Made by a program: the position numbers and the translations under genes. Below, piece by piece: positions 1,959 through 57,035 of a DNA stretch of 64,000 bases. Below the pieces are notes generated by a model, which was given only the letters and a program-made list of their open reading frames with translations, did no database searches and was not told the DNA's origin. This stretch comes from Candidatus Parcubacteria bacterium (lineage in GTDB: Bacteria > Patescibacteriota > Minisyncoccia > Minisyncoccales > JAGMDC01), in contig JAGMAD010000005.1 of NCBI GenBank assembly GCA_023130975.1, forward strand, positions 22,933 through 86,932, given 5' to 3'. Position 1 is the stretch's first letter. Each line of letters starts with the position of its first letter.

Positions 1959-2639
1959 TTAAAGTATAAAACGGCCCTTTTCTTCGTCTCTGATTATCCG
2001 GCCTTGTTCTAAAGTAACCACTCTTTTTTTTAAACCATTAACTATCTCTTTGTAATGAGTGGCTAAAATAACCGTTGTTCCTAATTCATTGATTTTTTCC
2101 AAAAGTTTTATAATATCCTGGGTGTGATAAGGGTCAAGATTACCAGTCGGTTCATCAGCAATTATCAATTGAGGCCTATGAATCAAAGCCCGGGCAATCG
2201 CTACTCTCTGCTTTTCTCCGCCAGAAAGCTGGACCGGGAAGTTTTCTCTTTTCTCGGTCAAACCCACAATTTCCAGAACCTGGGGCACATCTCTTTTAAT
2301 TTCTTCATTGCTGGCTCCCATAACCTCCATTACATAGGCAACATTTTCGTAAACATTTCGGGAAGAAAGCAGCTTATAATCCTGAAATATTACTCCAACT
2401 CTTCGCCGAAGTTCTGGAAGATGACGGGACTTAATTTTCTGAACATCATTATCCTGGAAAAAAACTTGTCCGGAATTCGGCTTCTCTTCCGCTAAAAGCA
2501 ATTTCAATAAAGTCGTCTTTCCTGCTCCGCATCTGCCAACAATAGAAACAAACTCCTTTTCCTTTATCTCTAAAGAAATATTATCAAGGGCGCAAATATC
2601 AGAATTATAGATTTTGCTTACATTTTGAAATTTAATCAT
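1959..2639 (-). CDS. ftsE: Cell-division ATP-binding protein FtsE
   Basis: Walker A GRCGAGKTT, ABC signature LSGGEKQR and Walker B LIIADEP. Adjacent to ftsX. Confidence 0.9.
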   Translation of the reverse strand: MIKFQNVSKIYNSDICALDNISLEIKEKEFVSIVGRCGAGKTTLLKLLLAEEKPNSGQVFFQDNDVQKIKSRHLPELRRRVGVIFQDYKLLSSRNVYENVAYVMEVMGASNEEIKRDVPQVLEIVGLTEKRENFPVQLSGGEKQRVAIARALIHRPQLIIADEPTGNLDPYHTQDIIKLLEKINELGTTVILATHYKEIVNGLKKRVVTLEQGRIIRDEEKGRFIL

Positions 2640-2642
2640 ATT

Positions 2643-3741
2643 TTAGCTTTTAATTTCTGCTTCAATAAACTTATCCAAATTTCCGTCTAAAACAGCTTCC
2701 ACATTAGAGGTTTCAATGCTGGTCCGCAAGTCCTTGACCATTTTATATGGATGCAGAACATAAGACCTAATTTGATTCCCCCACTCAGCAGAAACTGATT
2801 TTCCTTTCACTTCCTTGATTTCTTTTTGTCTTTCTTTTTCTTTCATTTGATAAAGCTTAGCATACAATAATTTCATTGCTTTTTCTTTATTCAAGCCCTG
2901 GAGGCGCTCACCCTGGCAGCTTACCACAATATTAGTTGGAAGATGAGTAATACGAATGGCTGATTCTCTTCTGTTGACATACTGGCCACCAGGACCAGAA
3001 GCCCGAAAAGCATCAATTCTTAAATCATCTGGACTGATTTTTATTTCTTTTTCGTCTATCCTTGAAATCTCTGGCAAAACTTCAATTAAAGCAAAAGAGG
3101 TATGGCGGAGTTTTTGTGGAGAAAAAGGAGAAATGCGAACCAAACGGTGAACCCCGGTCTCTTTCTTCAAAAATCCAAAAGCGTATTTTCCTTTAATTTC
3201 CAGAGTTGCTGATTTAGTTCCAATCCTTCCTTCTGGTCCTCCTCCTTCTCCAAAGGACTGATGTAAAATTTTTGTCTTAAATTCTTTTCCTGCGCAATAT
3301 CTTTCATACATCCGTAAAAGCATTGTTGCCCAGTCCTGGGCGTCCTGGCCGCCAGCACCAGAATATATGGATAAAACAGTATTTCCTTTATCGTATTTTC
3401 CGGAAAGAAAAGTTTTTTCTTCCTCTTTTTTTATTTCTTTTTCAAATTGAAAAATTCTTTCTTCTATTTCTTTTTCTAATGTTTCATCACTTAATTTAAT
3501 TATTTCTTTTAACTCCTCTAAATTTTCTTTAAGTTTTTCAAATTTCTCTTTTTCTTCTTTTAAATCCGCTAATTCTTGGGAAATCTCAGCTGCCTTTTCC
3601 TGGTTCTGCCAAAAATCCGGTTTCTGAATTTCTTTTTCTAATTCTTGAATTTTTTCTTGCTTTTTAATTAAGTCAAAGACAGTCCGCCAACTGGCGGAGT
3701 TTACCTTCTAAATCTTTGATTGTTTCTTCAAAACTTTTCAT
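2643..3741 (-). CDS. prfB: Peptide chain release factor 2, expressed through a programmed +1 frameshift (22 codons in frame 0, then 343 codons)
   Basis: Frame 0 from the ATG at 3741 reads MKSFEETIKDLEGKLRQLADCL then TGA. Shifting +1 at CTT-TGA-C continues DLIKKQEKIQELEKEIQKPDFWQNQ...SGAGGQDAQDWATMLLRMYERY, which joins ORF-track ORF 2643..3323. The SPF and GGQ motifs are present. Confidence 0.9.
3672..3690 (-). promoter_or_regulatory. RF2 autoregulatory +1 frameshift site (CTT TGA C) with an upstream GGCGGA purine-rich element
   Basis: The minus strand reads TTGGCGGACTGTCTTTGAC. CTT is 3678-3676, TGA is 3675-3673 and GAC is 3674-3672. The heptamer is identical to the E. coli prfB shift site. 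Confidence 0.85.
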
Positions 3742-4640: not shown

Positions 4641-4979
4641 CTATAAAAGAAAACTACTCTTTTGGAGATATATTTCATCGCCTTCCCATAGGGAGAAGCG
4701 AGAGAGAATATCTCCGAGGAGAAAGAGATCACTCTTTTCCTGTTCAACCCACGGTTCTCTTGTCCCATCTTCTCCAACAGGGAGTATGGAACGAACAAAC
4801 ACTCTGGTAAAGTGTTCACCGTAGGCCGGGACGATCCAAAATTCATTATCTGGATCGTTCATTCCAACCCCGTATGGGATTGGAGAATCCTTTACTGCCA
4901 CAAAGCGGTATATTTTGCCATTCACTTTCATCTTTTTTACCTCCTCTTCAATCGACCAATGGTCTGGTAAACTCACCAT
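4641..4979 (-). CDS. Hypothetical protein (112 aa)
   Basis: ORF-track ORF. The overlapping ORF 4622..4846 in another frame is rejected. A TTGACA-N17-TATACA promoter lies about 150 nt upstream. Confidence 0.55.
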   Translation of the reverse strand: MVSLPDHWSIEEEVKKMKVNGKIYRFVAVKDSPIPYGVGMNDPDNEFWIVPAYGEHFTRVFVRSILPVGEDGTREPWVEQEKSDLFLLGDILSRFSLWEGDEIYLQKSSFLL

Positions 4980-5135
4980 AAAATTTGATTAACTGAAGCG
5001 GAGGTAAAAAATTCCTCTCTCAATCACTAAACCACTTAACCACTCAATCACTTATTTTATTTTCTCCTTCCCTTTTTATTTGAGTGCTTTCAATGTGCTG
5101 TTCAAAGATGAAATTTGTCTTTCATCTTTACTTAT

Positions 5136-9791: not shown

Positions 9792-9830
9792 AGTTTAATT
9801 TTAACTTTTTTAAAGCAAATAAAAAAGCCC

Positions 9831-10220
9831 AAGCAGGCAATAAGCCGAATTCTGTCTTGGGCAATCATTTATCTATCGCCGAGCACTCAAAATTTTGAGT
9901 GCTCGGTCAAGCGAACTACTTTTTCACTTCGGCAAATCCGGAGATTGCCGAAATGCTTGTTCTTGCACCCGATAAGGATTTAGCCGTTTCACTTCTTCGA
10001 TTAACTCGAAGAACTCGCCAAGCACTCAGCAAACTGAGTGCTTGGCGCCTTAGCTCTTTCGAGCTTCGGCGTCTCTGTTCGCACCTCTAACCTTGCGGTC
10101 GACGGCTGTTAGCCGCTATCTTTTTAGACCAAGCACATAAATTATGTGCTTAAAATGGGTGTTCGGACTTTCCTCTAAGCACTCAGCGAACTGAATGCTC
10201 AGCGATTGCCTTGCCTACTT
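9831..10220 (-). ncRNA. rnpB: RNase P RNA (bacterial type A)
   Basis: The minus strand contains GAGGAAAGUCCGAACACC (CR-I) and ACAGAAUUCGGCUUA (CR-V). P1 is AAGUAGGCAA/UUGCCUGCUU and P2 is GGCAAUC/GAUUGCC. About 390 nt, followed by CUUGGGCUUUUUU. Confidence 0.9.
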
Positions 10221-10268
10221 AGACTGTTTCTATAGTAACAAAATAAAATCAACCTGTCAATGCTTTTA

Positions 10269-10739: not shown

Positions 10740-11978
10740 CTAAACATTTTTAAAGTATTTAATTAAACATTTTTTAAATTTTTCTAAATTCTCGTTTTTC
10801 ACAGTAAAGCCGGCAGCCGGCGCGTGGCCGCCAAAAGTCATTAAAAGCTTTTGACAGCTTTTCATTGCTTTTACAGCATCCATATTAGAAGGCACTCGCA
10901 CTGCGCCCATACTGTTTTCCTTTCTCTTTTTAAAAATAAAAGTGGGCTTTTTATGCTTATTGCAGACCCTCGAAGCTACCGAACCAATTAAGACATTAGG
11001 CCAGCCAATATCCCCTTCAAAAATTACAGAATCAGAGTTATCTAAAATTCTCTCTTCTACCTGTTCTACAATGTCTTTTATCTGAGAACGTCTTGCTTCA
11101 TTTCTGTCCAATAACTTTTCTACTAAATTTTTTGCTTTTCCCTTGTTCTGGCAAGTAAGAAGCAAGTATGCCTCGGTCAAATGGTCTTTAATTTCGCTTA
11201 CATTCAAAGCAGAAACAATTTTTTGAACTTTTTCTTTTTCTTTTAATCCGCCAGCTGGCGAATTTAGAGAGTTAATTTCAAAAAAAACTTTTAATCCTAT
11301 CCGTTGAGTGTCTTTTAGGGACTGAAGCCCTTTTTCAATATATGTTTTGTTATCTTCTTCTCGAACCATCATATCAGCGATAGTAGCTAAAGCCGCTAAT
11401 TCTAAAAAACTATTATCTAATGAATTGCTCATTTTGTCTTTAAGCATAACCTTCGTCAATTCATAAACAAGACCAGCAGCGGCAAATTCTTTAAAGGGAT
11501 AGTTATCGTCTTTTTGTTTTGGGTCAACGATAATTGAGGCATCTGGCAAAGAATCAATTACCTGATGATGGTCAATAATAATTGTTTCCAAACCAAGTTT
11601 TTTGGCTATTTTAACTTCTTCAAAGTTAGTGATACCCAAATCTAAGGCAATAAGCAGAGCTGGCGAGAGATGCTTTAAAAAAGCCAAGGCATTTTTATTG
11701 ATTCCATAACCTTCATTTTCTCGGTCCACAAAATAAACCTCCACACCATAACGAGGACTGACTTCGTCAGTTTTAGTGCCAAAGGCACTATGTCCTCGTT
11801 TGGTGTGGGGGTAAACAGCAGCAATATTCCCTTCCAAATTCTCAATAGCTTCCTCTAAAATAACTACTGAAGCAGTGCCGTCTAAATCAGCATCACCATA
11901 GATAATGATTTTCTCTTTATTTTTGATTGCCTTTAGAATTCTATTAGCTGCTTTTTTTAAATTTTTGATTTCAGGCAT
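10740..11978 (-). CDS. DHH-family phosphoesterase, RecJ-like
   Basis: IIIYGDADLDGTASVVILEE, the DHH motif (IIIDHHQV) and the DHHA1-like C-terminus GGHAPAAG. It contains a 26-codon insertion, listed as a mobile_element at 11738-11811. Confidence 0.8.
   Translation of the reverse strand: MPEIKNLKKAANRILKAIKNKEKIIIYGDADLDGTASVVILEEAIENLEGNIAAVYPHTKRGHSAFGTKTDEVSPRYGVEVYFVDRENEGYGINKNALAFLKHLSPALLIALDLGITNFEEVKIAKKLGLETIIIDHHQVIDSLPDASIIVDPKQKDDNYPFKEFAAAGLVYELTKVMLKDKMSNSLDNSFLELAALATIADMMVREEDNKTYIEKGLQSLKDTQRIGLKVFFEINSLNSPAGGLKEKEKVQKIVSALNVSEIKDHLTEAYLLLTCQNKGKAKNLVEKLLDRNEARRSQIKDIVEQVEERILDNSDSVIFEGDIGWPNVLIGSVASRVCNKHKKPTFIFKKRKENSMGAVRVPSNMDAVKAMKSCQKLLMTFGGHAPAAGFTVKNENLEKFKKCLIKYFKNV
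11738..11811. mobile_element. 74-nt palindromic MITE-like element inserted in frame in the recJ-like gene
   Basis: The terminal inverted repeats are CCTCCACACCATAACGAGGAC and GTCCTCGTTTGGTGTGGGGG. TAAA direct repeats flank it at 11734-11737 and 11812-11815. Element plus duplication is 78 nt. Confidence 0.7.
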
Positions 11979-11990
11979 ATTACCCCTTGA

Positions 11991-12073
11991 CCCCCCACCA
12001 CTTTGTCAAAAGTCAAAATAAATGAGGAAATATTTAGGAAATTTTAGATGGCGTTTTACAAAGTGGTGGGGGG
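11991..12073. mobile_element. 83-nt palindromic MITE-like element, intergenic copy
   Basis: Perfect 16-bp terminal inverted repeats CCCCCCACCACTTTGT (11991-12006) and ACAAAGTGGTGGGGGG (12058-12073). TTGA direct repeats flank it at 11987-11990 and 12074-12077. Confidence 0.7.
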
Positions 12074-12101
12074 TTGATAAGATTTTATGGTTGTGTATAA
12101 T
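12074..12101 (+). promoter_or_regulatory. Candidate plus-strand promoter TTGATA-N16-TATAAT with no downstream ORF
   Basis: TTGATA at 12074-12079 and TATAAT at 12096-12101. The -35 box overlaps the right flanking TTGA of the element. Confidence 0.4.
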
Positions 12102-12390: not shown

Positions 12391-13512
12391 TTACTTTCCC
12401 GAGCATATTGCTTCTATTCCTACCAACTTTTCATCAACTAAATAATCAAGCATTGCGCCGCCGCCAGTGGAAACAAAACTAAATTTTTTAATTAAACCAA
12501 CCCTGGTTAAAAACTCAATCGTCTCCCCTCCTCCAACTACTGAAAAAGCTTTACCTTTAACAACAGCTTTGGCAATCTCTCTTGTAGCTTTAGAAAATCT
12601 CTTTTCTTCAGTTTTTCCCAATGGACCATTCCAAAAAATGGTTTTTGCTTTTTTAATTTTTTCAATAAATATTTTTATTGTTTTTTCTCCAATATCACCG
12701 CTATCCACCCAGTCCACAGGAAGAATAATTTTTTCTGGATATTTAAATTTTACATTCTGCCATTCTATTTCTTTAGGTATCAGGCCGCCAATTAAAACAT
12801 AATCAGTTGTTTCAGAAAGTTTGTTAATCAATTTTACTTTTGTTTTTACTTTGGCGCCGCCAATTATTGCTATTAAAGGTTTTTTTGGCTTAAACATTAA
12901 TTGTTTCAATGTCTCTATTTCTTTTTCTACTGAAAAACCAATACCTGAAGGCAAAAACTTTGGCAGACCAGTAATTGAGGCATGGGAACGATGGCAAACA
13001 GCAAAAGCATCATTAATATAAACCCCGCACCTTTTGTCGGCTAACTTTCTTAATTTAGGTGCTGAAGGTACCTTGCTGACAAAAGGTGCGGGGTAAATAT
13101 CGCCTGTTAATTTTGCCAAGTCCTTCGCAAATTTTTCATTATTTTCTTTCTCCCCTTTGTAAAATCTTAAATTCTCCAAAACAACAATATCTCCTGATTC
13201 CATTTTTTCTATTTCCTTTTCAACCTTATCGCCAATACAATCCGAAAAAAACCTAACTTTTTTATTTAATAATTCTCCTAATCTATTGGCAATTGGTCTT
13301 AAGCTAAACTTTTCTTCTCTTTTTTCCGGCCTGCCGAGATGACTAATTATAATAATCTTAGCTTGATTTTTTGCCAAATATTCAATGCTGGGAATAGCTG
13401 CTTTAATCCGAAAATCATCTAAAATATCCCCTTGTTTTGACAAAGGGACATTAAAATCAGTTCTTAATAAAACTCTTTTTCCTTGAAAATCAAAATCTTT
13501 TAATGTCTTCAT
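12391..13512 (-). CDS. pgk: Phosphoglycerate kinase, carrying a 25-codon element-derived insertion
   Basis: KRVLLRTDFNVP, IIISHLGRP, INDAFAVCHRSHAS, GGAKVKTK and STGGGAMLDYL. The ATG overlaps the stop of the upstream ATPase gene (ATGA). Confidence 0.93.
   Translation of the reverse strand: MKTLKDFDFQGKRVLLRTDFNVPLSKQGDILDDFRIKAAIPSIEYLAKNQAKIIIISHLGRPEKREEKFSLRPIANRLGELLNKKVRFFSDCIGDKVEKEIEKMESGDIVVLENLRFYKGEKENNEKFAKDLAKLTGDIYPAPFVSKVPSAPKLRKLADKRCGVYINDAFAVCHRSHASITGLPKFLPSGIGFSVEKEIETLKQLMFKPKKPLIAIIGGAKVKTKVKLINKLSETTDYVLIGGLIPKEIEWQNVKFKYPEKIILPVDWVDSGDIGEKTIKIFIEKIKKAKTIFWNGPLGKTEEKRFSKATREIAKAVVKGKAFSVVGGGETIEFLTRVGLIKKFSFVSTGGGAMLDYLVDEKLVGIEAICSGK
13023..13093. mobile_element. 71-nt palindromic MITE-like element inserted in frame in pgk
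   Basis: Perfect 16-bp terminal inverted repeats CCCCGCACCTTTTGTC (13023-13038) and GACAAAAGGTGCGGGG (13078-13093). TAAA flanks lie at 13019-13022 and 13094-13097. The total of 75 nt equals 25 codons. Confidence 0.75.
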
Positions 13513-15101
13513 TTTTCGTCTTCTTCTTTTTTCAGGGACTCTTCTAAAACTTCTTTTAATTCTTTAGTATTGATTTCTTTTCTTTCGGGCTTTTCTCTTT
13601 TTTCTTGAACTTTTCTATGAGGAGAGAAAAAAATAGGTTCTTTTTCCACTGCTTCATTCAAGGACATACTCGGTTCTTTTTTATCTTCTGTTTTAGTTAT
13701 TTTTTCAAGGCAGGACTTGCAATAAACAGGCCTTACTCCATCCGGCTTAAAAGGAACTTTTATCAACCTACCGCATTCCTGGCATTGAGCATCATAAAGA
13801 ACTGGCAAGGGCCTGACTGGTTCAGCTTCTTTTATTGGTTCTGACCACTGGCTAATTTTTTCTTCAACGATTTTTCTTTCTGTACCGTATTTGGCCCGCG
13901 ATTTTTCAATAATCTCTTCTCTGTTTGAATCTTCTGGCTTTGATGCAGGCAACAGGGTTTCAGCAGAAAATGGCCTGCTGGCTACACCGTCAATCATTAG
14001 CTTTAGATAGATGTTATATTTGGCTAAATTAACTAAATCAGAGGCAAAAAATTCTGGCATAAATTCTCTTTCTAAAAATTGGGCGTCCTCTGCTCCTATT
14101 CGAAAAGAAGCAATAGTGCCTACGTTGCCAAAAACAGCATCTCTGACTGTTTCTTCCATTTGAGCAATATATTGATGAGCCAGAATTAAGGACAAGCGGT
14201 ATTTTCTGGCTTCAGATAAGATATTGACAAAGGACTCGGTGGCAAAGTTTTGAAATTCGTCTACATAAAGGAAAAAATCATTTCTTTTCTCTTCCGGCAT
14301 ATCCACTCTGGACATTGCTGCTAACTGTATTCTGGTAATTAAAAGGGCGCCCAACAAGCGAGAAGCATCCTCCCCTATTCTCCCTTTAGACAAGTTCAAT
14401 ATTAAAATCTTTCCTTTATCCATCACCTCTCTCATATCAATAGATGATTCAACCTGGCCAATAATGTTTCTAATTAAGGGCGCGGAAATAAACTGGCCAA
14501 TTTTGTTTTGAATAGCTGCTGTGGCCTCTATCTCATATCTTTGGGTATACCTGGCAAATTCTTGAACCCAAAATGCTTTTACTACCGGGTCAGTTACTTT
14601 CTCTATCACCTCTTTGCGGTAATCAGTATCAGCCAGCATTCGATTGATGCCCAAAAGAGTGGAACCAGGATATTCTAAAAGAGCTAAAATACAGTTATTT
14701 AAAATATATTCCATTCTGGCTGACCAAACATCAGGCCAAATCTTTTTAAAGACACCCATTAAGCCGCCAGCCACTAAATGCCGTTTTTCAAGAGCTACTT
14801 CTTCCATAATATTAAAAGCAATGGGATAATCTAAGTCAGCGGGATTGAAATAAACAACATCTTTAATTCTATCCTTGGGCACAAAATCAAGAAGATTTTC
14901 TGCTGCCTCGCCATGAGGGTCAACAAAACCTATTCCCTTACCGTCTCTGACGTCTTGGATAGCCATATTCTCCAGCATAGCTGTTTTGCCCATACCAGTT
15001 TTTCCAACTACATAAAGATGCCGACGTCTATCATCGGTCTTGATGCCAAATTTTTTTCTGATATTACGAAAGTTTGTTTCTCCGAAAAAATTAATGTCCA
15101 T
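13509..15101 (-). CDS. VirD4/TraD-like (type IV coupling protein family) P-loop ATPase with a C-terminal CxxC...CxxC zinc ribbon
   Basis: Walker A VVGKTGMGKTAML, Walker B FFLYVDEFQNF, AHQYIAQM, and the C-terminus CQECGRLIKVPFKPDGVRPVYCKSC. I chose the ATG at 15101 because the ORF-track start at 15110 is TTG. Confidence 0.7.
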   Translation of the reverse strand: MDINFFGETNFRNIRKKFGIKTDDRRRHLYVVGKTGMGKTAMLENMAIQDVRDGKGIGFVDPHGEAAENLLDFVPKDRIKDVVYFNPADLDYPIAFNIMEEVALEKRHLVAGGLMGVFKKIWPDVWSARMEYILNNCILALLEYPGSTLLGINRMLADTDYRKEVIEKVTDPVVKAFWVQEFARYTQRYEIEATAAIQNKIGQFISAPLIRNIIGQVESSIDMREVMDKGKILILNLSKGRIGEDASRLLGALLITRIQLAAMSRVDMPEEKRNDFFLYVDEFQNFATESFVNILSEARKYRLSLILAHQYIAQMEETVRDAVFGNVGTIASFRIGAEDAQFLEREFMPEFFASDLVNLAKYNIYLKLMIDGVASRPFSAETLLPASKPEDSNREEIIEKSRAKYGTERKIVEEKISQWSEPIKEAEPVRPLPVLYDAQCQECGRLIKVPFKPDGVRPVYCKSCLEKITKTEDKKEPSMSLNEAVEKEPIFFSPHRKVQEKREKPERKEINTKELKEVLEESLKKEEDEK

Positions 15102-15380
15102 AATTATCAACGAATAACGAATCAGTTACGAATTTACGAATTAATTGAGCGAGGCAAATAATTTTTGGGATATTAAAGCGAGGGGAATAATTTTTGGGAC
15201 AATCCGCAGCGAATTGGCTTGGTCCCCCTCCTTTTCGCGCTTGCGCAAAAGGAGGGGGCAATTCGCGAGTAGCAGTAAATTTCCGCTGGAGAAATTTGCG
15301 TGTACCAAAAGTTACTCCCTGAGCGAAATTCCTAAAAATCACTCTCTAAGCGGTATTCTCAAAAGTTATACTTCCGAGCG
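15102..15380. repeat. 279-nt repeat- and hairpin-rich spacer inside an otherwise tightly packed operon
   Basis: Four ATTCGT hexamers lie next to the ATG. CCCAAAAATTATT occurs twice. A 35-nt GC hairpin CCCCCTCCTTTTCGCGC-TT-GCGCAAAAGGAGGGGG spans 15224-15258. There are three degenerate units of about 27 nt, CGCT(C/T)NG(A/G)(A/G)AGT..TTTT.G. Confidence 0.6.
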
Positions 15381-27228: not shown

Positions 27229-27296
27229 CCCCGCACCTTTTCTAGACAGCTTTGAATTTTTGAAGCCTTTGGCTTCTGTCCAGAAAAGGTGCGGGG
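27229..27296. mobile_element. 68-nt palindromic element copy forming a 23-bp stem with a T-run upstream of secA
   Basis: AACCCCGCACCTTTTCTAGACAG ... CTGTCCAGAAAAGGTGCGGGGTT. The terminal 13 nt CCCCGCACCTTTT are identical to the pgk copy. On the minus strand it is followed by GTTTTTTTTAT. Confidence 0.7.
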
Positions 27297-27312
27297 TTGG
27301 AGAAGAAATTTA

Positions 27313-27339
27313 CTTCTTTTTCTTCTTTTTCTTCTTTTT
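27313..27339. repeat. (CTTCTTTTT)3 perfect 9-nt tandem repeat
   Basis: Three exact copies. On the minus strand the repeat sits inside the ATG-GCA-(AAG/AAA)10-TAA micro-ORF at 27310-27348. Confidence 0.85.
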
Positions 27340-27519
27340 CTTTGCCATTTTATTTAATTATTTCAGAAAGCACATATTTTATGCTTTCAGAAATAACTAT
27401 CTTACATTAAGGCAAATATTCGACTTCTTATTTGCCCGTCCGCCAAAATTTTTTAAAAATTAGGCGGGCAAAAATTTTAAAGAAAATTCATTACTTTATT
27501 TTTTCATTTTAAAAAAGTT

Positions 27520-30530: not shown

Positions 30531-31691
30531 ATGTATTTTGTTCATCCCCAAATAAATTTAAACAAAAAAAATTTTCAGAAAATATTCTCTTCTTTTTTCC
30601 GAACTCCTGATTCAAAGGGCTTAAACAAAAAGCTCTCTTCTTTCTTTCCGGAAAAGCAGATTGTTTTTACTGACATGGGCAGGTCGGCTTTTCAAATCAT
30701 AATTGAAAAAATGAATTTAAGAAACAGCCAGATGCTTTTTCCTGCTTACATCTGCGATATCTTCCTGCCCATTTTTAAGAAATATAATATTAAACCGATT
30801 TTCTTAGATGCTGATATTAAGACCTTTAATTTAAAAATTGAAGAAATGGAAAAGAAAACCAGTCCCCAAACCAAATCTATTTTTGTTTCCCATATTTACG
30901 GCCTGCCTAATAACATAAATAAGATATTGTTTATCGCTAAAAAACATAATTTAAAAGTCATTGAGGACTGCGCCCATAGTTTTGGGATAAAAAAGGGAAA
31001 AAGATATTTAGGAAATTTTGGTGAGGCCTCTTTGTTCAGTTTATACAAATTTCTTCCGGTTGCTAGAGGAGGAATGCTGGTCTGTCCCAAGAACTGGAAA
31101 ATAGATTTAGAAGAAACATCTTTCAGTCCCCGTGATTTTATTTCTTTCTTAAACCATTTTCCTTTTTGGGCTTTTCTGTTTAAAAAATTTGGCGGCTTCG
31201 TTTCTCCAAAAATAATAAGAAAAGAAAAGCTGTCTAAGACCGGAGGAATTAACAAGGTCTCTTTGAATCTATTTTCTTCTCTCTTTGAAGAACACCAGAA
31301 AAATTTAAAAAAAAGAATAAATCTTGGCTTGTTTTTTCAAAAAGAACTTAAAAATTTAGGCTTTGAGACCCGGGAAGGAAAAGAGAATGGTTTTTGCTAT
31401 CTTTCTGTTTTAATGCCAAAAAAATTGAGAGAAAAAAGAGATGATTTTATAAAAGGACTGAGAAAAGAAGGTGTCCATTGTACAAGAATGTGGTATAGTC
31501 CTATAGTTCTTAATCCGGAAGCGCAAAAAAAATACAAATTAGACCTAAATGAATTTCCAAATACCATAGAGATAAGCCAAAGAGTTATTAATTTTCCTTT
31601 GCAGGATTTCTTTCAGAAAAAAGACATAAAAGAAATGATTGGAAAAATAAAGAAAGTGCTTAATTCACTTGACCCCGTAGTGAAAATTTGA
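30531..31691 (+). CDS. DegT/DnrJ/EryC1/StrS-family protein (aminotransferase-like)
   Basis: PAYICDIFLPIFKKYNIKPIFLDAD, VSHIYGLP, VIEDCAHSFG and SLYKFLPVARGG. The last codons and the stop lie inside a palindromic element. Confidence 0.6.
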   Translation: MYFVHPQINLNKKNFQKIFSSFFRTPDSKGLNKKLSSFFPEKQIVFTDMGRSAFQIIIEKMNLRNSQMLFPAYICDIFLPIFKKYNIKPIFLDADIKTFNLKIEEMEKKTSPQTKSIFVSHIYGLPNNINKILFIAKKHNLKVIEDCAHSFGIKKGKRYLGNFGEASLFSLYKFLPVARGGMLVCPKNWKIDLEETSFSPRDFISFLNHFPFWAFLFKKFGGFVSPKIIRKEKLSKTGGINKVSLNLFSSLFEEHQKNLKKRINLGLFFQKELKNLGFETREGKENGFCYLSVLMPKKLREKRDDFIKGLRKEGVHCTRMWYSPIVLNPEAQKKYKLDLNEFPNTIEISQRVINFPLQDFFQKKDIKEMIGKIKKVLNSLDPVVKI

Positions 31692-31748
31692 CAAAGTTTT
31701 CTTTTGGAAAACTCATATCGCAAAGCGAGTCAAATTTCTACTACGGGG
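31673..31748. mobile_element. 76-nt palindromic MITE-like element overlapping the 3' end of the DegT-like gene
   Basis: The arms are CCCCGTAGTGAAAATTTGAC and GTCAAATTTCTACTACGGGG. TTGA flanks lie at 31669-31672 and 31749-31752. The stop codon at 31689-31691 lies inside the element. Confidence 0.65.
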
Positions 31749-31834
31749 TTGACACAAGTTCTTGAATTTGCTAACATTAGATTAGTGAGTGTGAGATCCT
31801 ATGAGAAATCAAAGGAACTCCATTCTTTGTCGGC

Positions 31835-53646: not shown

Positions 53647-54587
53647 AACTTATTCCTGAACCACTCCACTGTCTCTTTCAATCCCCTATCTAAATTATAT
53701 TTCGGCTGACAGCCAAGCTCTTTTTTTGCTTTTTTAAAATCTAAACAGCTTCTTTTCTGCTCACCAGGTTTTTCAGGAATATGAATCTCTTTACAATTTA
53801 AATCAGCCAACTTTCTAATTTTTCTAAAAATAGTATTAATACTGGTTTCATTTGCTGTCCCAATATTAAAAACCCCGATTTTGTTTTTCTTCAAAGCCAA
53901 TATATTCGCTTCAACCACATCATTAATATAAACAAAATCCCGGGTTTGTTTTCCATCACCGTTTATTGTTGTTTCTTTACTATTTAGCATTTTATCGCAG
54001 AAAATGGCAATTACTCCTGCCTCTCCTTTTGAATTTTGTCTGGGTCCATAAACATTTGACAAACGCAAAGATACATAAGACAGACCAAAAACTTTATAAT
54101 AATAATTTAAGTATTTATCAAAAACCAATTTTTCAATCCCATATGGCGAAACAGGCATTTCAGGATATGTTTCTGGAGTAGGAATAATATCAGCGTCGCC
54201 ATAAATGGCACCGCCAGTAGAAGCAAAGATTATTTTAGAAGCGAATCTATGCGAACGATTAGGCGAAAGAACGCGAATAAAATTCTGAATTATATTTAAA
54301 GAACCGAGAATATTAATTTTGGCATCTTCAATTGGATCCTCAACTGATTTTCTTAAATCAATTTGAGCCGCTAAATGAAAAACTGTTTCTGGTTTTTCTT
54401 TTTTAAAAACATCGGAAATTTTAGGACTCCTGATGTCCAATTTATAAAATTTGGCTTTAGGATTCAAGTTTTTTTTAGTTCCGGTAGATAAATTATCAAT
54501 CACCACCACTTTATGATTTTCTTTGATTAATCTATCTACTAAATGACTTCCGATAAAACCAGCTCCCCCAGTGACTAATATCTTCAT
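53637..54587 (-). CDS. NAD-dependent NDP-sugar epimerase (GalE-like extended SDR)
   Basis: MKILVTGGAGFIGSHLVDRL, and SPYGIEK (the YxxxK motif). Confidence 0.88.
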   Translation of the reverse strand: MKILVTGGAGFIGSHLVDRLIKENHKVVVIDNLSTGTKKNLNPKAKFYKLDIRSPKISDVFKKEKPETVFHLAAQIDLRKSVEDPIEDAKINILGSLNIIQNFIRVLSPNRSHRFASKIIFASTGGAIYGDADIIPTPETYPEMPVSPYGIEKLVFDKYLNYYYKVFGLSYVSLRLSNVYGPRQNSKGEAGVIAIFCDKMLNSKETTINGDGKQTRDFVYINDVVEANILALKKNKIGVFNIGTANETSINTIFRKIRKLADLNCKEIHIPEKPGEQKRSCLDFKKAKKELGCQPKYNLDRGLKETVEWFRNKLAS

Positions 54588-54662: not shown

Positions 54663-57035
54663 ATGGAAAACAATATCGTTGAAAATAAAATAAAATGGGT
54701 TTATCTTCTGGGCTTTTTTTTAATTTTGGCCTTACCGCTTTTGAATCTACCGCCCTGGTTCTCGCCGCCTGACTGGGGGAAAACCATTGTTTTTAGGATT
54801 ATTCTATCTCTAATGATTTTTGTTTTTCTATGGCAAGTCCTTTTCCAGAAATTAAATGATAATTTATCATTGATCATTAAAAATATATTAAATAAGCAAA
54901 GTAAGGTTTTTTTAAGTTTCTGGCTCTTGATTGCTTTCTTAGGAGTTTACTTCTTGGCTACCCTATTTTCTCAAGACCCATATTTCAGCTTTTGGGGATC
55001 TCCTTACCGTGCCGGTGGATTTCTTAATTTCGCTTTCTGTATAATTTTTGCTATTTTAGCTTTTTTAATTCTCCGAAAATCTGACTGGCAAAAAATCTGG
55101 GATTTTAGTATAATTATTGGAATTTTTGTCTCATTTATTGCTATCTTTCAGCAACTCGGTCTTTTTAGTAAGGTAGTTATTCCTTTTTCCGGTAGAGCGC
55201 CTTCTACTATCGGCGGACCAATATTTTTGGCAATTTATCTTTTGCTTTTATTTTTTCCTATCTTATTTTTTGGTATTAGAGAAAAAAATCTTGTTAAGAA
55301 GTTTTTTTATTTTTTTGCTCTTTTATTATTTTTTTATGTTATCTTAAATACTGGAAGCCGAGCCGCTTATTTTGGATTATTAATTGGAATCTTTTATTTT
55401 GTTCTTTTCTACCCTGTTAAATTCCACTTTGCGGCACCCAGCCTTTTACAGAAAGGCGGGGTATTTAACAGGGTGGACCCCCACACCAAAAAGCTTTTTT
55501 TAGTCAAAATCTTTTTTGGAATCCTTTTGGTTTTAGGAATTTTGGGAGTTTATTATTTGAATGCTGATTACCAAGTCCCTCAATCTTTTCAAGAAAACAA
55601 GATTTTTAAAACAGTCAATTCAAGATTATCTATCAGTTTAGCCATAAAAGATCCTCGTTTCTCCAGTTGGGAAATTGCTTTCAGGGCAATGAAAAAAAAA
55701 CCGATTTTGGGTTATGGGCCGGAAAATTTTTCAATTGGTTTTGATAAGCATTATGACCCTTCTTTGCCATACATTGATCCGGATTGGGGCAGTTGGTATG
55801 ACCGTGCCCATAATTTTATTTTTGATATTGGGGTTACTGTAGGAATTTTAGGTCTGATTATTTACCTTTCCCTTTTTGCAGTTTTATTCTCTGGATTACA
55901 AAAACTAAAAAAAATTAAACCAGAAAAAATAATAATATATCATGGAATTCAAGCTGCTTTCTTAGCTTATTTGGCAGCTAATTTCTTTAGTTTTGATACT
56001 TTTTCAACCTACTTAATATCGTTTTTAATAATTGCTTATAGTTTAACTTTAATAAATCAATCAGAAAAAAAGCAAAATGAAATCATTAAACCAAAAATTA
56101 GAAGTGTCCAAAAACTCACGATCGTGAAAATTTGGACACTTTTAAAAAAATATAAAAAAGCAATTATTGTTATTTTATTTTTATTCTTAATCTGGTTTAT
56201 CTGGGCTTGTAATATCAAACCTTTTTGGATTAACAAAGAAATCCGTTCTACTAAAACTCAATCTCAAATTGGGAATTATCAACAAGGCCTGAAACAATTA
56301 GAAAGCGTCTTGGATTCTCACACTTATTTAGACAGTTATTTAAGATTAAATTATGTTGAGCTTATTAGCCAAAACCTAGAAAAAACTCCGCCGGCTTTTC
56401 AGGGAATTTTAGTGGAAAAAGCAATCAATGCTTTAAAGGAAAATACTGAAATCAGACCTTATTATACCAGAAACTGGTTATTGCTGGGAAATTATACCAA
56501 TGTTTTGATTGAGAAAGGAAAAAAAAACCTAAGAGGAGAAGCATATTACTATTTTGAAAAAGCTCTTCAATTAAGCCCTAAGCACTTAGAAATTTTCATT
56601 GGTCTGGCAAAAACCGATTTATTAACCAATGATTATTTAGGAGCAAAAAATAATGCCCAAAAATGCATCAATTTAAATTCAAAAGTTGGAGAATGCTGGT
56701 GGTTAATGGCTATAACTAATATCTATTTGAATAACATTGAAGAAGCCCAGGGAAACATAGAAGCAGCAAGAAAAGCAATATATCCTGTTGGCTCAAAATC
56801 CTCTACTGCTCAACTTATAAATGCCTATAATTACATCAAAAACTATGAAGAAATAGTTAAAATTTATCAAACATTAATTTTGCAAGAACCAAACAATGCT
56901 CAATATCATTTCTCCTTAGCAGTTTATTATAAAGAACTGGGTAATAATGAAAAAGCAAAAAAAGAAGCTCTAAGGGCTTTAGAGCTAATGCCAGAAGCAA
57001 AGAAACAAATAGAAGAGTTTTTAAAAACTCTTTAA
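54663..57035 (+). CDS. O-antigen-ligase-like (Wzy_C domain) polytopic membrane protein fused to C-terminal TPR repeats
   Basis: NTGSRAAYFGLLIG and YDRAHNFIFDIGVTVGILGL show the Wzy_C pattern. The C-terminal ~250 aa has TPR-like repeats (YYFEKALQLSP, AVYYKELGNNEKAKKEALRALEL). Confidence 0.75.
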   Translation: MENNIVENKIKWVYLLGFFLILALPLLNLPPWFSPPDWGKTIVFRIILSLMIFVFLWQVLFQKLNDNLSLIIKNILNKQSKVFLSFWLLIAFLGVYFLATLFSQDPYFSFWGSPYRAGGFLNFAFCIIFAILAFLILRKSDWQKIWDFSIIIGIFVSFIAIFQQLGLFSKVVIPFSGRAPSTIGGPIFLAIYLLLLFFPILFFGIREKNLVKKFFYFFALLLFFYVILNTGSRAAYFGLLIGIFYFVLFYPVKFHFAAPSLLQKGGVFNRVDPHTKKLFLVKIFFGILLVLGILGVYYLNADYQVPQSFQENKIFKTVNSRLSISLAIKDPRFSSWEIAFRAMKKKPILGYGPENFSIGFDKHYDPSLPYIDPDWGSWYDRAHNFIFDIGVTVGILGLIIYLSLFAVLFSGLQKLKKIKPEKIIIYHGIQAAFLAYLAANFFSFDTFSTYLISFLIIAYSLTLINQSEKKQNEIIKPKIRSVQKLTIVKIWTLLKKYKKAIIVILFLFLIWFIWACNIKPFWINKEIRSTKTQSQIGNYQQGLKQLESVLDSHTYLDSYLRLNYVELISQNLEKTPPAFQGILVEKAINALKENTEIRPYYTRNWLLLGNYTNVLIEKGKKNLRGEAYYYFEKALQLSPKHLEIFIGLAKTDLLTNDYLGAKNNAQKCINLNSKVGECWWLMAITNIYLNNIEEAQGNIEAARKAIYPVGSKSSTAQLINAYNYIKNYEEIVKIYQTLILQEPNNAQYHFSLAVYYKELGNNEKAKKEALRALELMPEAKKQIEEFLKTL
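55411..55474. repeat. 64-nt nested palindrome in frame inside the Wzy_C gene
   Basis: The outer 12-bp inverted repeat is ACCCTGTTAAAT and ATTTAACAGGGT. The inner one is GCCTTTT/GAAAGGC. It is followed by CCCCCACACCAAA, which is identical to the recJ element terminus. Confidence 0.6.

Follow-up and report, generated by a model that had tools for sequence, protein, structure and literature searches.

The window, the whole 64-kb stretch of Parcubacteria (CPR) DNA that was analysed, carries an intact phosphoglycerate kinase gene, pgk (12391..13512, minus strand), whose product of 373 amino acids has a Pfam PGK match at 2.9e-113. Inside this gene lies a palindromic element of 71 nt, E3 (13023..13093, no strand assigned), with terminal inverted repeats that are perfect over 16 nt (CCCCGCACCTTTTGTC / GACAAAAGGTGCGGGG). 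It is flanked by a target-site duplication, TAAA, at 13019..13022 and 13094..13097, which reads TTTA on the gene strand. The G+C content of E3, counted from the sequence, is ~52% vs ~33% in the surrounding window, and the element forms a long hairpin with a DNA folding energy of −25.3 kcal/mol vs −7.75 for shuffles (z = −9.1). Its 16-mer occurs four times in the window with up to 3 mismatches, against an expectation of 0.17. E3 has no ORF of its own, and together with one copy of the duplicate it amounts to 75 nt, or 25 codons without a stop. A preliminary description, made from the sequence alone, had claimed the element, its perfect repeats, its TAAA flanks, its GC-richness, its 25 stop-free codons in pgk and the uninterrupted passage of other PGKs, such as that of Thermotoga, through this point; all of these claims held in every detail.

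In the protein, the insert comprises residues 139-163, and the sequence across it reads ...LTGDIY-PAPFVSKVPSAPKLRKLADKRCGVY-INDAF.... Once these 25 residues are removed, the PGK aligns without gaps to the Thermotoga maritima enzyme (1vpe, ...SLADIHVNDAFGTAHR), to 1php and to all but one of the 26 other Parcubacteria PGKs aligned; the segment is missing from the next closest PGKs (69-73% identity) and from 25/26 aligned homologues. Parcubacteria PGKs hold many other lineage-specific insertions, that of L127 being made of tandem heptamers and not a palindrome. The insertion of E3 in pgk is not an assembly artefact: an identical PGK protein is encoded on six independent contigs in assemblies from NCBI, ENA and Logan; the two whose DNA was compared, an ENA scaffold and a contig of SRR13892598 from Logan, match the window letter for letter throughout pgk; and a diverged copy is present in a second lineage. 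The ORF is unbroken and retains the PGK family motifs despite the insert, and dN/dS is 0.25 between two insert-bearing pgk genes and 0.23-0.25 between pgk and an insert-free orthologue. These data show that the enzyme has been under purifying selection since the insertion, and we conclude that it is still functional.

The element is tolerated in pgk because, with its duplication, it adds 75 nt and no stop in the pgk frame, and for the same reason the insert is most likely translated, although this is an inference without transcript or peptide data. The resulting 25-residue excursion would be located between a helix and the β-strand leading to the NDAF..HR substrate-binding motif, where the duplicated TTTA would restore the V/I-Y start of the strand, so that the fold would be preserved and the PGK functional. 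An AF2 model keeps helix 126-134 and the strand at 165-166 that flank the insert, with pLDDT < 50 at residues 138-157; the model, of only moderate quality with a mean pLDDT of 75.9, carries little information on the insert, which is predicted to be a loop and probably is one.

In the syntenic pgk orthologues of two related genomes, L002 and L003, the site is empty and reads GATATTTATATTAAT, with a single TTTA; in the window the occupied site reads GATATTTA-CCCC..GGGG-TTTATATTAAT, with TTTA doubled. These two uninterrupted genomes prove the 4-bp target duplication at pgk. The alignment with PGKs of sister genomes that the preliminary description had proposed as a check also revealed the same insert at the same pgk site in three genomes (L001, L219 and L220), the PGK of the sister lineage being 78% identical. 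In P0002/L001 and GCA_030612885.1 (L219) the element is identical to E3 at 65 of 71 nt with both repeats unchanged and TTTA doubled as in the window, and the inverted repeats, perfect over 16 nt in the window, extend to 19 nt in the sister lineage. We place the insertion of E3 at TTTA in pgk, with its duplication of 4 bp, in an ancestor shared by this Parcubacteria lineage and its sister lineage. Between the two insert-bearing lineages pgk differs at 17% of positions and both 16-nt repeats are unchanged, with a synonymous divergence of 0.19 in the insert vs 0.52 outside. A constraint on the repeats was considered and dropped, since such conservation is ordinary for the gene (21% of 71-nt pgk windows are at least as conserved) and the low value in the insert comes from only 25 codons.

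Further elements in the window

E3 is accompanied in the window by at least five further elements, two of them in frame and one rewriting a C-terminus, which brings the total to six elements and one lone arm. E1 (11738..11811, 74 nt) lies in frame in a DHH/DHHA1 phosphoesterase gene (10740..11978, minus strand), between TAAA at 11734-11737 and TAAA at 11812-11815; E1 and TTTA together make 78 nt and add 26 amino acids (YPHTKRGHSAFGTKTDEVSPRYGVEV). The E1 site is empty, with a single TTTA, in L001, L002 and L003, and because E1 is missing from all three it is younger than the pgk insert. E2 (11991..12073, 83 nt) lies in the intergenic stretch that separates pgk from the DHH gene, stopping 12 nt short of the DHH start codon, and is flanked by TTGA at 11987-11990 and 12074-12077. 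No clean empty site was found for E2, the spacer being unalignable in L219 and L001; L002 has an apparent half-element at this position.

E4 (27229..27296, 68 nt) lies between genes, upstream of secA, and no duplication can be recognised around it; its termini are the same 13 nt as those of E3 (CCCCGCACCTTTT), and these are the only two elements in the window to have them in common. Read along the minus strand, E4 gives way to a run of T. E5 (31673..31748, 76 nt, termini CCCCGTAGTG), with TTGA on either side (31669-31672 and 31749-31752), provides the final codons and the stop of a DegT-family aminotransferase ORF (30531..31691), whose C-terminus, as read from the sequence, changes through E5 from ...LDTSS-stop to ...LDPVVKI-stop. 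TTGAC is found at the edge of two copies, E2 and E5.

E6 (55412..55473, 62 nt, termini CCCTGTTAAAT / ATTTAACAGGG) lies in frame in a Wzy_C/TPR ORF (54663..57035, plus strand), where it encodes YPVKFHFAAPSLLQKGGVFNRV; its flanks differ (TCTA vs TGGA), and the Wzy_C Pfam match around it takes up 185 residues for 149 profile positions. That E6 is an in-frame insertion in this Wzy-like gene is inferred from the sequence, without an empty-site comparison. Elements with termini of the E6 type are inserted in other Parcubacteria PGKs. Directly after E6, a lone arm (CCCCCACACCAAA, 55478..55490, plus strand) is identical to the arm of E1 and is likely to be the remnant of another copy. Two other palindromes were left out: the hairpin at 53873-53943 is native coding sequence of an epimerase that aligns end to end with its Pfam profile, and the palindrome at 4940-5004 has inverted, not direct, flanks and ends that are not CCCC.

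A family of short elements and its GIY-YIG coding relatives

A scan of species-representative genomes with the pattern CCCCGCACCTT N32-62 AAGGTGCGGGG returned at least 119 matching loci vs about 1 expected by our own estimate, mainly in Patescibacteria and Omnitrophota and also in other phyla. What defines the family are its CCCC...GGGG termini, for which CCCCGCACC and CCCCCACACC are common forms, together with T-N-N-A duplications of 4 bp, sometimes 5 bp; its short elements measure 55-85 nt and their interior is highly variable throughout. Direct repeats of ≥4 bp flank 78 of 128 copies vs about 9.5 with permuted flanks, with T at position −4 in 93% and A at position −1 in 94%, and 35 of the 128 short copies lack a recognisable duplication. 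Eleven copies lie inside long ORFs, and in ten of these the length plus 4 is divisible by 3. The pattern had no match among 2.9 million viral contigs, in which phage carriage was sought, and Rfam 15 returned no family at gathering score, only generic sub-threshold hairpins and nothing of substance to E 10. Clustering of ORFs of ≥180 aa in about 800 kb around the 128 copies revealed neither a transposase nor a recurrent neighbour gene, no HUH gene was seen near copies, and no transposase was present among the ORFs inspected between long-range terminus pairs in L045, L075 and L087.

The sole ORF ever found between such termini encodes a GIY-YIG nuclease. Four genomes (L040, L061, L075 and L107) carry the same termini around one such ORF, with Pfam PF01541 matches at 1e-14 to 1e-16; at 54-61 bits vs a cut-off of 22.6, the coding relatives belong to the GIY-YIG superfamily, which the pgk element does not. 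The proteins are 83-94 aa (~85 aa) and consist of the catalytic domain only, the nearest solved structures being the UPF0213 proteins 1zg2 and 1ywl, and SLX1. CCC..GGG inverted repeats bracket 59 of 80 metagenomic GIY-YIG homologues, with a median unit of 296 bp, and this pairing persists in diverged subfamilies, to protein identities as low as about 45%; the coding units are about 290-320 bp long with a single ORF. Direct repeats of ≥4 bp were found at 29 of the 59 bracketed units vs 2.4 with permuted flanks, 24 units have no recognisable duplication, and one coding subfamily has 7-bp repeats. The units are 85-96% identical in unrelated flanks with different duplications, and the dN/dS of the ORF, 0.09-0.25, shows that the nuclease is under purifying selection. 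P0161 was set aside as proof of copies at multiple loci, the places compared all having the same neighbour genes.

The short copies are linked to these units by their termini: the arms of E1, E2, E3 and E4 match GIY-YIG unit arms over 14-18 nt, those of E1 matching the element in L189, with the same left/right asymmetry, and the E2 arm CCCCCCACCACTTT being that of the element in L184. A unit of the GIY-YIG type and a short copy are separated by 58 nt on the Parcubacteria contig VMFS01000001. The 64-kb window itself has no GIY-YIG ORF, and a source of the enzyme in the rest of the genome is not shown.

Taken together, E3 is very likely a non-coding derivative, a MITE, of a small transposable-element family with terminal inverted repeats, and we put the probability of the whole explanation, including the family and its nuclease, at about 0.8. 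E3 meets the criteria for a MITE in its size (<~500 bp, without a transposase gene), inverted repeats, target duplication with empty site, multiple copies within the 64 kb and longer coding partner in other genomes; its mobilisation in trans by the partner enzyme is inferred, there being no transposition data. The preliminary description had called the element MITE-like and likened its in-frame behaviour to that of Rickettsia palindromic elements, which the empty sites, the copies in the window and the loci in other genomes support. It had also suggested novelty for this lineage; the family proved wider than that, spanning Patescibacteria, Omnitrophota and other phyla, and the coding relatives with a minimal GIY-YIG nuclease and no classical transposase go beyond what had been claimed. 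The three observations that it had named as refuting the element, namely a homologous segment without palindromic DNA in PGKs of unrelated lineages, absence of further copies of the termini and an assembly chimera, were all negative. No description of the terminal sequence, of a MITE in CPR/Patescibacteria or of a link between GIY-YIG and bacterial inverted-repeat elements was found in open-access papers and bioRxiv; the family and its likely mobilising enzyme thus appear undescribed in the literature searched, and an earlier description is not excluded.

Likeness to known systems

The closest behavioural parallel is with the Rickettsia palindromic elements (RPE; Ogata et al. 2000, summarised in PMC10969869). 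Like these, the elements are short palindromes in frame in unrelated housekeeping genes of a small-genome bacterium, the extra peptide segments are tolerated and, by inference here, translated, no transposase lies in the same region, and the criterion of in-frame insertion into ORFs that remain functional is met. Unlike RPE, they measure 55-85 nt instead of about 100-150 bp, differ in host phylum and sequence, have clear terminal inverted repeats and a proven 4-bp duplication, cross phyla and have GIY-YIG coding relatives. The resemblance is therefore in behaviour only: they work like RPE, and membership is not shown, without a comparison to RPE sequences. With the bacterial MITEs derived from insertion sequences (Correia/NEMIS, RUP, ERIC, Coxiella QMITE1 and Anabaena MITEs, reviewed in PMC10969869) they share small size, inverted repeats, target duplication, many copies, hairpin-forming transcripts, occasional in-frame fusion with host ORFs and termini common to longer coding elements. 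Here, however, the longer partners have no DDE, HUH, serine or tyrosine transposase, and are GIY-YIG units of ~296 bp instead.

The nuclease resembles the stand-alone Slx1-like/UPF0213 (YhbQ-type) proteins BH0048 (1zg2) and EF2693 (1ywl) in having a GIY-YIG domain and no accessory domain. Dunin-Horkawicz et al. 2006 (PMC1564403) treated the Slx1/UPF0213 family as vertically inherited repair proteins, whereas the gene described here is bracketed by inverted repeats and duplications, recurs at 85-96% identity in surroundings that are unrelated, and is accompanied by non-coding derivatives. The eukaryotic Slx1 enzyme cleaves hairpin and branched DNA, an activity that, by analogy, would suit a palindromic substrate. 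Like the GIY-YIG homing endonucleases (I-TevI, phage Seg proteins), the units are a selfish gene built on a GIY-YIG catalytic domain, and the short, degenerate cleavage motif of I-TevI, CNNNG, is comparable in style to T-N-N-A. Homing endonucleases, however, have large DNA-binding domains, act at one cognate site via repair and lack inverted repeats and duplications, whereas the proteins here have about 85 aa and the units many insertion sites, inverted repeats and duplications. In keeping with this, TIGR01453 scores 21.7 and 28.9 bits on the GIY-YIG proteins, well under its 56-bit cut-off, so that the homing-endonuclease criterion is not met.

Yeast mitochondria contain mobile G+C-rich palindromic clusters, one of which, in var1, is translated in frame. 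These clusters and the byp elements are likewise short GC-rich hairpins in an AT-rich genome, with coding insertions and short target repeats; unlike the present family they are organellar and of other sequence, byp elements are bypassed instead of translated, and neither is known to contain a nuclease gene. REP/RAYT and IS200/IS605-derived palindromes lack a target duplication and are marked by a conserved 5' tetranucleotide and an HUH (Y1) partner; membership was rejected on account of the duplications in 78 of 128 copies and the absence of an HUH gene near copies.

Proposed mobilisation and rival explanations

In the mechanism that we propose, the GIY-YIG nuclease, supplied in trans, would mobilise the short copies. 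It might, for instance, recognise the palindromic ends or an extruded hairpin and cleave T-N-N-A with a stagger of 4 nt, the gaps being filled by host repair. Both the nuclease as mobility enzyme and the chemistry of transposition are inferred: to our knowledge there is no transposase of the GIY-YIG type and no experiment in which an 85-aa GIY-YIG domain carried out transposition, and it remains possible that the nuclease is a passenger, or a separate selfish gene inside the element. A bolder reading, which could as well prove wrong as right, is that the ~290-320 bp units are autonomous transposons with a minimal Slx1-like GIY-YIG nuclease as their mobility enzyme. If true, they would form a superfamily of transposons that belongs to none of the five known enzyme classes (DDE, HUH, serine, tyrosine and Cas1) and would be the smallest autonomous mobile element by far. 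In Patescibacteria and Omnitrophota their hairpin-only derivatives would then be spreading into intergenic DNA, into stop codons and the starts of tRNA genes and also, in frame, into housekeeping proteins.

The combination of inverted repeats, duplications and a minimal GIY-YIG nuclease is a testable candidate for a new, extremely compact transposon class, and it suggests what some small, widespread proteins that bear no annotation beyond 'GIY-YIG nuclease family protein' may do. In the hosts, CPR proteins, a central glycolytic enzyme included, are remodelled by in-frame insertions of mobile hairpins; such hairpins may explain part of the many lineage-specific inserts in CPR protein alignments and are relevant to annotation, structure prediction and the choice of phylogenetic markers. 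Patescibacteria and Omnitrophota are ultra-small and often co-occur, and gene exchange between them has been inferred (PMC12455944); the family is common to both and is therefore a marker of DNA flow between them.

The rival that survives best, unlikely as we consider it, derives the short elements, as MITEs, from a conventional DDE insertion sequence and regards the GIY-YIG ORF as cargo, or as a selfish gene nested in some copies. In its favour, staggered cuts by DDE enzymes typically go with 4-5 bp duplications and a T-N-N-A target, no GIY-YIG enzyme is known to us to have been shown to catalyse strand transfer, and the nuclease gene is missing from the 64-kb window. Against it, there is no transposase or recurrent neighbour in about 800 kb around 128 copies, GIY-YIG alone is found as an ORF between the termini, 59 of 80 independently retrieved GIY-YIG homologues across diverged subfamilies have such termini, and the ORF is under purifying selection. 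The criterion for a DDE insertion sequence (IS1380, IS5 and similar), a DDE gene between the same termini, is not met. One putative candidate within this rival is the IS1380 family, which is related to piggyBac. IS1380 has CC ends and 4-5 bp duplications, and piggyBac CCC...GGG ends and a TTAA target. The likeness extends to ends starting CC(C), 4-5 bp duplications and targets of the T...A type; no DDE transposase was found with these termini, however, the coding members have GIY-YIG, and the lead was superseded by the GIY-YIG finding. The terminus of IS5 is GGAAGGTGCG; a 9-mer shared with it lies in the opposite orientation relative to the terminus and was set aside as coincidence.

Much less probable is that E3 is removed from the mRNA, or skipped by translational bypassing with the duplicated TTTA as matching take-off and landing sites beside a strong hairpin, and is thus not in the mature PGK. 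Translational bypassing occurs in phage T4 gene 60 and at the byp elements of Magnusiomyces mitochondria, and CPR bacteria excise insertions from rRNA. The hairpin is very stable, and identical tetranucleotides in the same codon phase flank E3 in pgk and E1 in the DHH gene. However, all copies in real genes are stop-free and frame-preserving (75, 78 and 66 nt in the window, 10 of 11 elsewhere), which counts against skipping because a skipped or spliced element would be under no such constraint. E3, at 71 nt, is also far too short for a group I/II intron, and 25 aa for an intein, the Rfam search returned no ribozyme or intron, and E5 supplies the stop codon that its ORF actually uses.

We give scarcely more credence to the view that the palindrome has ceased to be a passive insertion and is kept for host use as a structured DNA or RNA signal within and between genes. 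It might then be a site of recombination or replication pausing, a TTGAC box that creates a promoter, or a terminator or attenuator. The unchanged 16-nt repeats in a gene that differs at 17% of positions, the lower synonymous divergence of the insert (0.19 vs 0.52), the run of T after E4 and the TTGAC at the edge of two copies would fit it. Against this, the conservation is not statistically unusual and the low dS comes from only 25 codons, copies lie in unrelated genes and positions, the nearest relatives without the insert manage without the palindrome, and the family interior is highly variable. That E3 is an ordinary lineage-specific loop, a local duplication or inversion, or an assembly artefact, for which only the other lineage-specific PGK insertions of Parcubacteria (L127 with its tandem heptamers among them) would speak, is all but excluded by its exact boundaries, the empty sites with a single TTTA, the recurrence of the same termini in the window and at the loci in other genomes, and the identical gene on six independent contigs.

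Insertion of a short inverted-repeat element within pgk

The pgk gene (12391..13512, minus strand) encodes a phosphoglycerate kinase (PGK) of 373 aa (Pfam PGK at 2.9e-113) and contains a 71-nt palindromic element, E3, at 13023-13093. The first 16 nt of the element (CCCCGCACCTTTTGTC) and its last 16 nt (GACAAAAGGTGCGGGG) are perfect reverse complements, and TAAA immediately adjoins it on both sides. The single strand forms one long hairpin of −25.3 kcal/mol, where shuffles give −7.75 (z = −9.1), and the 16-mer occurs four times in the window with up to three mismatches, where 0.17 occurrences are expected. Together with one TAAA the element makes up 75 nt that are open in the pgk frame, and the protein reads ...LTGDIY-PAPFVSKVPSAPKLRKLADKRCGVY-INDAF.... 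Alignments with the solved PGKs 1vpe and 1php are interrupted exactly at this insert and become gapless once the 25 residues are left out. The preliminary description of the element (size, repeats, TAAA flanks and reading frame) held in every detail, and its interpretation as a palindromic, MITE-like element inserted in frame, behaving like the Rickettsia palindromic elements, is supported.

PGK homologues were collected and 27 were aligned. The insert is present in only one other aligned protein (P0002, 78% identical), at the same position; the site is uninterrupted in every other aligned PGK, including the next closest, P0003-P0007 (69-73% identical). The gene order TrwB-like, PGK, DHH, RNase H is shared by the window and two insert-free relatives, L002 (GCA_030630045.1) and L003 (GCA_023131895.1), in which the empty site reads GATATTTATATTAAT; the filled site in the window reads GATATTTA-CCCC...GGGG-TTTATATTAAT. 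One TTTA at the empty site and two at the filled site show a 4-bp target-site duplication, and the pgk segment arose by transposition of a short inverted-repeat element into the gene. The exact window protein is found on six contigs from NCBI, ENA and Logan assemblies, and the pgk DNA of the two contigs that were fetched (an ENA scaffold and a Logan contig of SRR13892598) is identical to that of the window. Since all six contigs encode the identical protein and a sister lineage carries its own diverged copy, misassembly is excluded, within the limits of sequence data alone. A TrwB/TraG-like ATPase gene (13509..15110), whose product has a treble-clef zinc finger at its C-terminus, shares 4 nt (13509-13512) with the start of pgk and lies ahead of pgk in all related Parcubacteria loci seen (L002, L003, L125, L127, L219), an unexpected conserved pair.

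In the sister lineage (L001, L219 (GCA_030612885.1) and L220) the element shows 6 differences in 71 nt, all of them central, and both repeats are unchanged; outside the element, pgk is 82.9% identical between the two lineages. As equal or greater conservation is seen in 21% of the 71-nt windows across pgk, the conservation of the element is unexceptional for this gene and allows no conclusion on selection for the hairpin. Outside the insert, dN/dS between the two insert-bearing genes is 0.25 (dS 0.52), and each of them gives 0.23-0.25 (dS 0.67-0.68) against the insert-free orthologue in L002; these ratios show that purifying selection on PGK has been maintained since the insert was gained.

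An AlphaFold2 model built from the 27-sequence alignment (mean pLDDT 75.9) retains the helix at 126-134 and the strand at 165-166; pLDDT falls below 50 at residues 138-157, and a short helix is predicted within the insert at 151-160. The element entered where the strand running into the NDAF..HR motif begins, at its N-terminal end. Because ligand-binding loops in alpha/beta folds come after the C-terminal ends of strands, the insert would form an excursion away from the active site, as inferred from general fold topology. The duplicated TTTA, as read from the sequence, yields V-Y in place of I-Y at the strand start, and the strand is thus regenerated.

Inserts of other kinds interrupt further Parcubacteria PGKs elsewhere in the alignment. 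Those of L125 and L126 are palindromes of 48-52 nt with ACCCYGTTAAAT at their ends, the terminus type of the window element E6; that of L128 has a 10-nt inverted repeat; and that of L127 (P0008) consists of tandem heptamers (AAATCCG and AAATTCA repeats) translated in frame, a microsatellite-like expansion. The L127 insert follows the HLGRP motif, as do inserts in P0009, P0045, P0054 and P0060.

Related copies in the window

Scanning the window for hairpins with CCCC...GGGG ends revealed five further elements. E1 (74 nt, 11738-11811) lies in frame in the DHH/DHHA1 gene, flanked by TAAA on each side; E2 (83 nt, 11991-12073) lies between pgk and the DHH gene, flanked by TTGA on each side; E4 (68 nt, 27229-27296), upstream of secA and without a duplication, has 13-nt termini identical to those of the pgk element; E5 (76 nt, 31673-31748), with TTGA on both sides, supplies the final codons and stop of a DegT-family aminotransferase ORF at its 3' end; and E6 (62 nt, 55412-55473; flanks TCTA and TGGA) is in frame in a Wzy_C/TPR ORF, with a solitary arm of E1 sequence after it at 55478. 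The E1 insertion comprises 78 nt (74 nt plus TTTA), and L001, L002 and L003 have an empty site instead. It is younger than the pgk insertion, because L001 has the pgk insert and an empty E1 site, and the element family has been repeatedly active in the lineage of the window. Along 21 kb of synteny, the pgk copy is the only one in the sister genome, and no copies were found in L002 or L003. The elements in the pgk, DHH and Wzy-like genes share one codon phase (xTN NA/C CC. ...), hence the inserted peptides start with Y-P.

Several minor features were also observed. At the position of E2 (window 11979-12090), L002 has TCAA followed by CCCCCAC... at ~11420-11468, a sequence resembling one half of an element; earlier occupation of the site or a hot spot could explain it. 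A CCCCG...CCGGG hairpin at 53873-53943, in an NAD-dependent epimerase ORF, was rejected as a family member and regarded as native coding sequence, because the epimerase matches its Pfam profile over the full length (residues 3-243, profile positions 1-240). A tiny ORF, ATGGCAAAGAAAAAGAAGAAAAAGAAGAAAAAGAAGTAA (MAKKKKKKKKKK and stop), lies between murB and secA at 27310-27348 on the minus strand, just upstream of E4. The RNase P RNA (9826-10221, minus strand) scores 105.4 in Rfam, barely over the threshold of 100, and measures 396 nt against a 367-position model; it contains paired 29-nt inverted-repeat arms (AAGCACTCAG... motifs) at 10015-10043 and 10177-10205, possibly an insertion.

Short copies across phyla

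The pattern CCCCGCACCTT N32-62 AAGGTGCGGGG was scanned in one genome per species (GTDB), and at least 119 loci matched, where by our own estimate about one is expected by chance. The matching records are mostly Omnitrophota and Patescibacteria, the latter comprising Saccharibacteria-labelled, Falkowbacteria, Peribacteria, Portnoybacteria, Doudnabacteria and Parcubacteria genomes, and there are scattered matches in MAGs labelled Planctomycetia, Nitrospira, Elusimicrobia, Latescibacterota and Proteobacteria, some of these labels perhaps being loose. No viral contig matched the pattern. A family common to Omnitrophota and Patescibacteria fits the gene exchange independently inferred between them (PMC12455944).

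The short copies are 54 to 84 nt long with highly variable interiors. Direct repeats of at least 4 bp flank 78 of 128 copies, against ~9.5 with permuted flanks, being exactly 4 bp in 70 and 5 bp in 6. A T-N-N-A target emerges from the flanks, with 93% T at position -4 and 94% A at position -1. Eleven copies lie inside long ORFs, and in 10 of these the length plus 4 is divisible by three. In-frame copies persist because they are stop-free multiples of three, and this constraint favours translation over splicing out or bypass; that they are translated is thus inferred from the frame constraint.

In Omnitrophota the usual duplication is TGAA, which flanks nearly every copy with that label, and in 8 of 26 TGAA-flanked copies an ORF of at least 80 codons terminates at the left TGA. 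This suggests that gene ends are targeted or that copies survive there. Examples of TGAA-flanked copies are L007, L020, L023, L040, L079, L080, L086 and L118, nearly all labelled Omnitrophota. Many Omnitrophota copies (L008 2624-2693, L009, L039, L040 and others) also have a third, internal, degenerate right arm (e.g. GAAGCGTGGGGTTTGAA), in the order left arm, internal right arm, right arm; nested or tandem insertions could account for it, or the basic unit could be a ~45-nt hairpin.

GIY-YIG coding relatives and proposed mobility

Longer units with the same kind of termini were found at four loci: L040 (TATA-CCCCACACCTTTTCT...AAAAGGTGTGGGG-TATA, 339 bp), L061 (CCCCGCACCTTTTCAGGAC...GTCCTGAAAAGGTGCGGGG, 300 bp, on a Parcubacteria contig with a short copy 58 nt away), L075 (TTTA-CCCCTCACC...AAGGTGAGGGG-TTTA, within 2340-3504) and L107 (CCCCGTTAGAGATTT...AAATCTCTAACGGGG). 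Each has one ORF of 85-94 aa, a GIY-YIG catalytic domain (PF01541, E = 1e-14 to 1e-16), whose nearest solved relatives are the UPF0213 proteins BH0048 (1zg2) and EF2693 (1ywl), and SLX1; the ORFs fall in the minimal Slx1-like branch of the superfamily survey of 2006 (PMC1564403). In L075 the reading frame runs from the unit straight into the N-terminus of a type IV pilin-like ORF, and the resulting in-frame chimera spans 382 aa.

With the four aligned proteins as a query, relatives were retrieved from metagenomes; 451 of 600 candidate stretches encode one, and the best 80 were kept. CCC...GGG inverted repeats, typically 14-25 nt (score ≥9), bracket 59 of these 80, with a median unit size of 296 bp, and direct repeats of at least 4 bp are present in 29 of the 59, against 2.4 with permuted flanks. 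The termini include the element types of the window: CCCCGCACCTTTT matches E3 and E4, CCCCCCACCACTTT matches E2, and CCCCCACACC(A)TAACGAG / CTCGTTTGGTGTGGGGG match E1 over 18 and 17 nt, left/right asymmetry included. Units 85-96% identical occur in unrelated flanks with differing duplications, and the ORF has a dN/dS of 0.09-0.25, with a premature stop in one copy. The pgk element belongs to a large family, the longer members of which have a single gene, a conserved GIY-YIG nuclease under selection. Public data contain a great many homologues of 84-89 aa, named at source only 'GIY-YIG nuclease family protein' or 'putative endonuclease'; no ORF of this type lies within the 64-kb window.

We infer that the nuclease is the mobility enzyme and that the short copies are non-autonomous derivatives mobilised in trans. 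It would recognise the palindromic ends, perhaps as extruded hairpins or cruciforms, a possibility considered because Slx1-type enzymes are structure-specific; it would then make a 4-nt (sometimes 5-nt) staggered break at T-N-N-A, after which the ends would be joined and the gaps filled by host enzymes. The scheme is plausible, and DNA joining by a catalytic domain of ~85 aa is its unexplained step. The rival explanation, that an unseen DDE transposase moves the elements, is possible but unlikely; neither a transposase nor a recurrent neighbouring gene was found around the copies.

In structure the pgk element matches a MITE, and its behaviour is that of the Rickettsia palindromic elements (PMC10969869), in-frame selfish DNA in housekeeping genes, here in a new phylum. 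Family tests failed for a DDE insertion sequence, a REP/RAYT element, an IS200/IS605-derived element and a homing endonuclease gene, and membership of any Rfam family was likewise rejected, none being matched by the element. The finding is real; the pgk insertion alone is an in-frame MITE, an already known type of element, and novelty rests on the wider family with the GIY-YIG nuclease as its sole gene. To our knowledge, no prokaryotic transposon class combines inverted repeats and a target duplication with a minimal GIY-YIG nuclease as the only gene. Such a unit is absent from the 2024 MITE review (PMC10969869) and from the 2006 GIY-YIG survey, and no description was found in the open-access and bioRxiv full text searched, which does not exclude a prior one. 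The family could represent a new class of transposon.

One subfamily of GIY-YIG units (termini CCCCTCAC...GTGAGGGG) is located exactly where tRNA-Ala or tRNA-Val genes begin (L131, L132, L135, L142, L147, L156, L159, L170 and L171) and duplicates a 7-bp repeat, CNNNTAG. The predicted tRNA starts in the terminal G run of the element, 3-5 nt before the element end (3 nt in L131, within the terminal GGG, the element ending at ~1768); together with the CNNNTAG duplication, this implies that the tRNA 5' end is regenerated and not destroyed.
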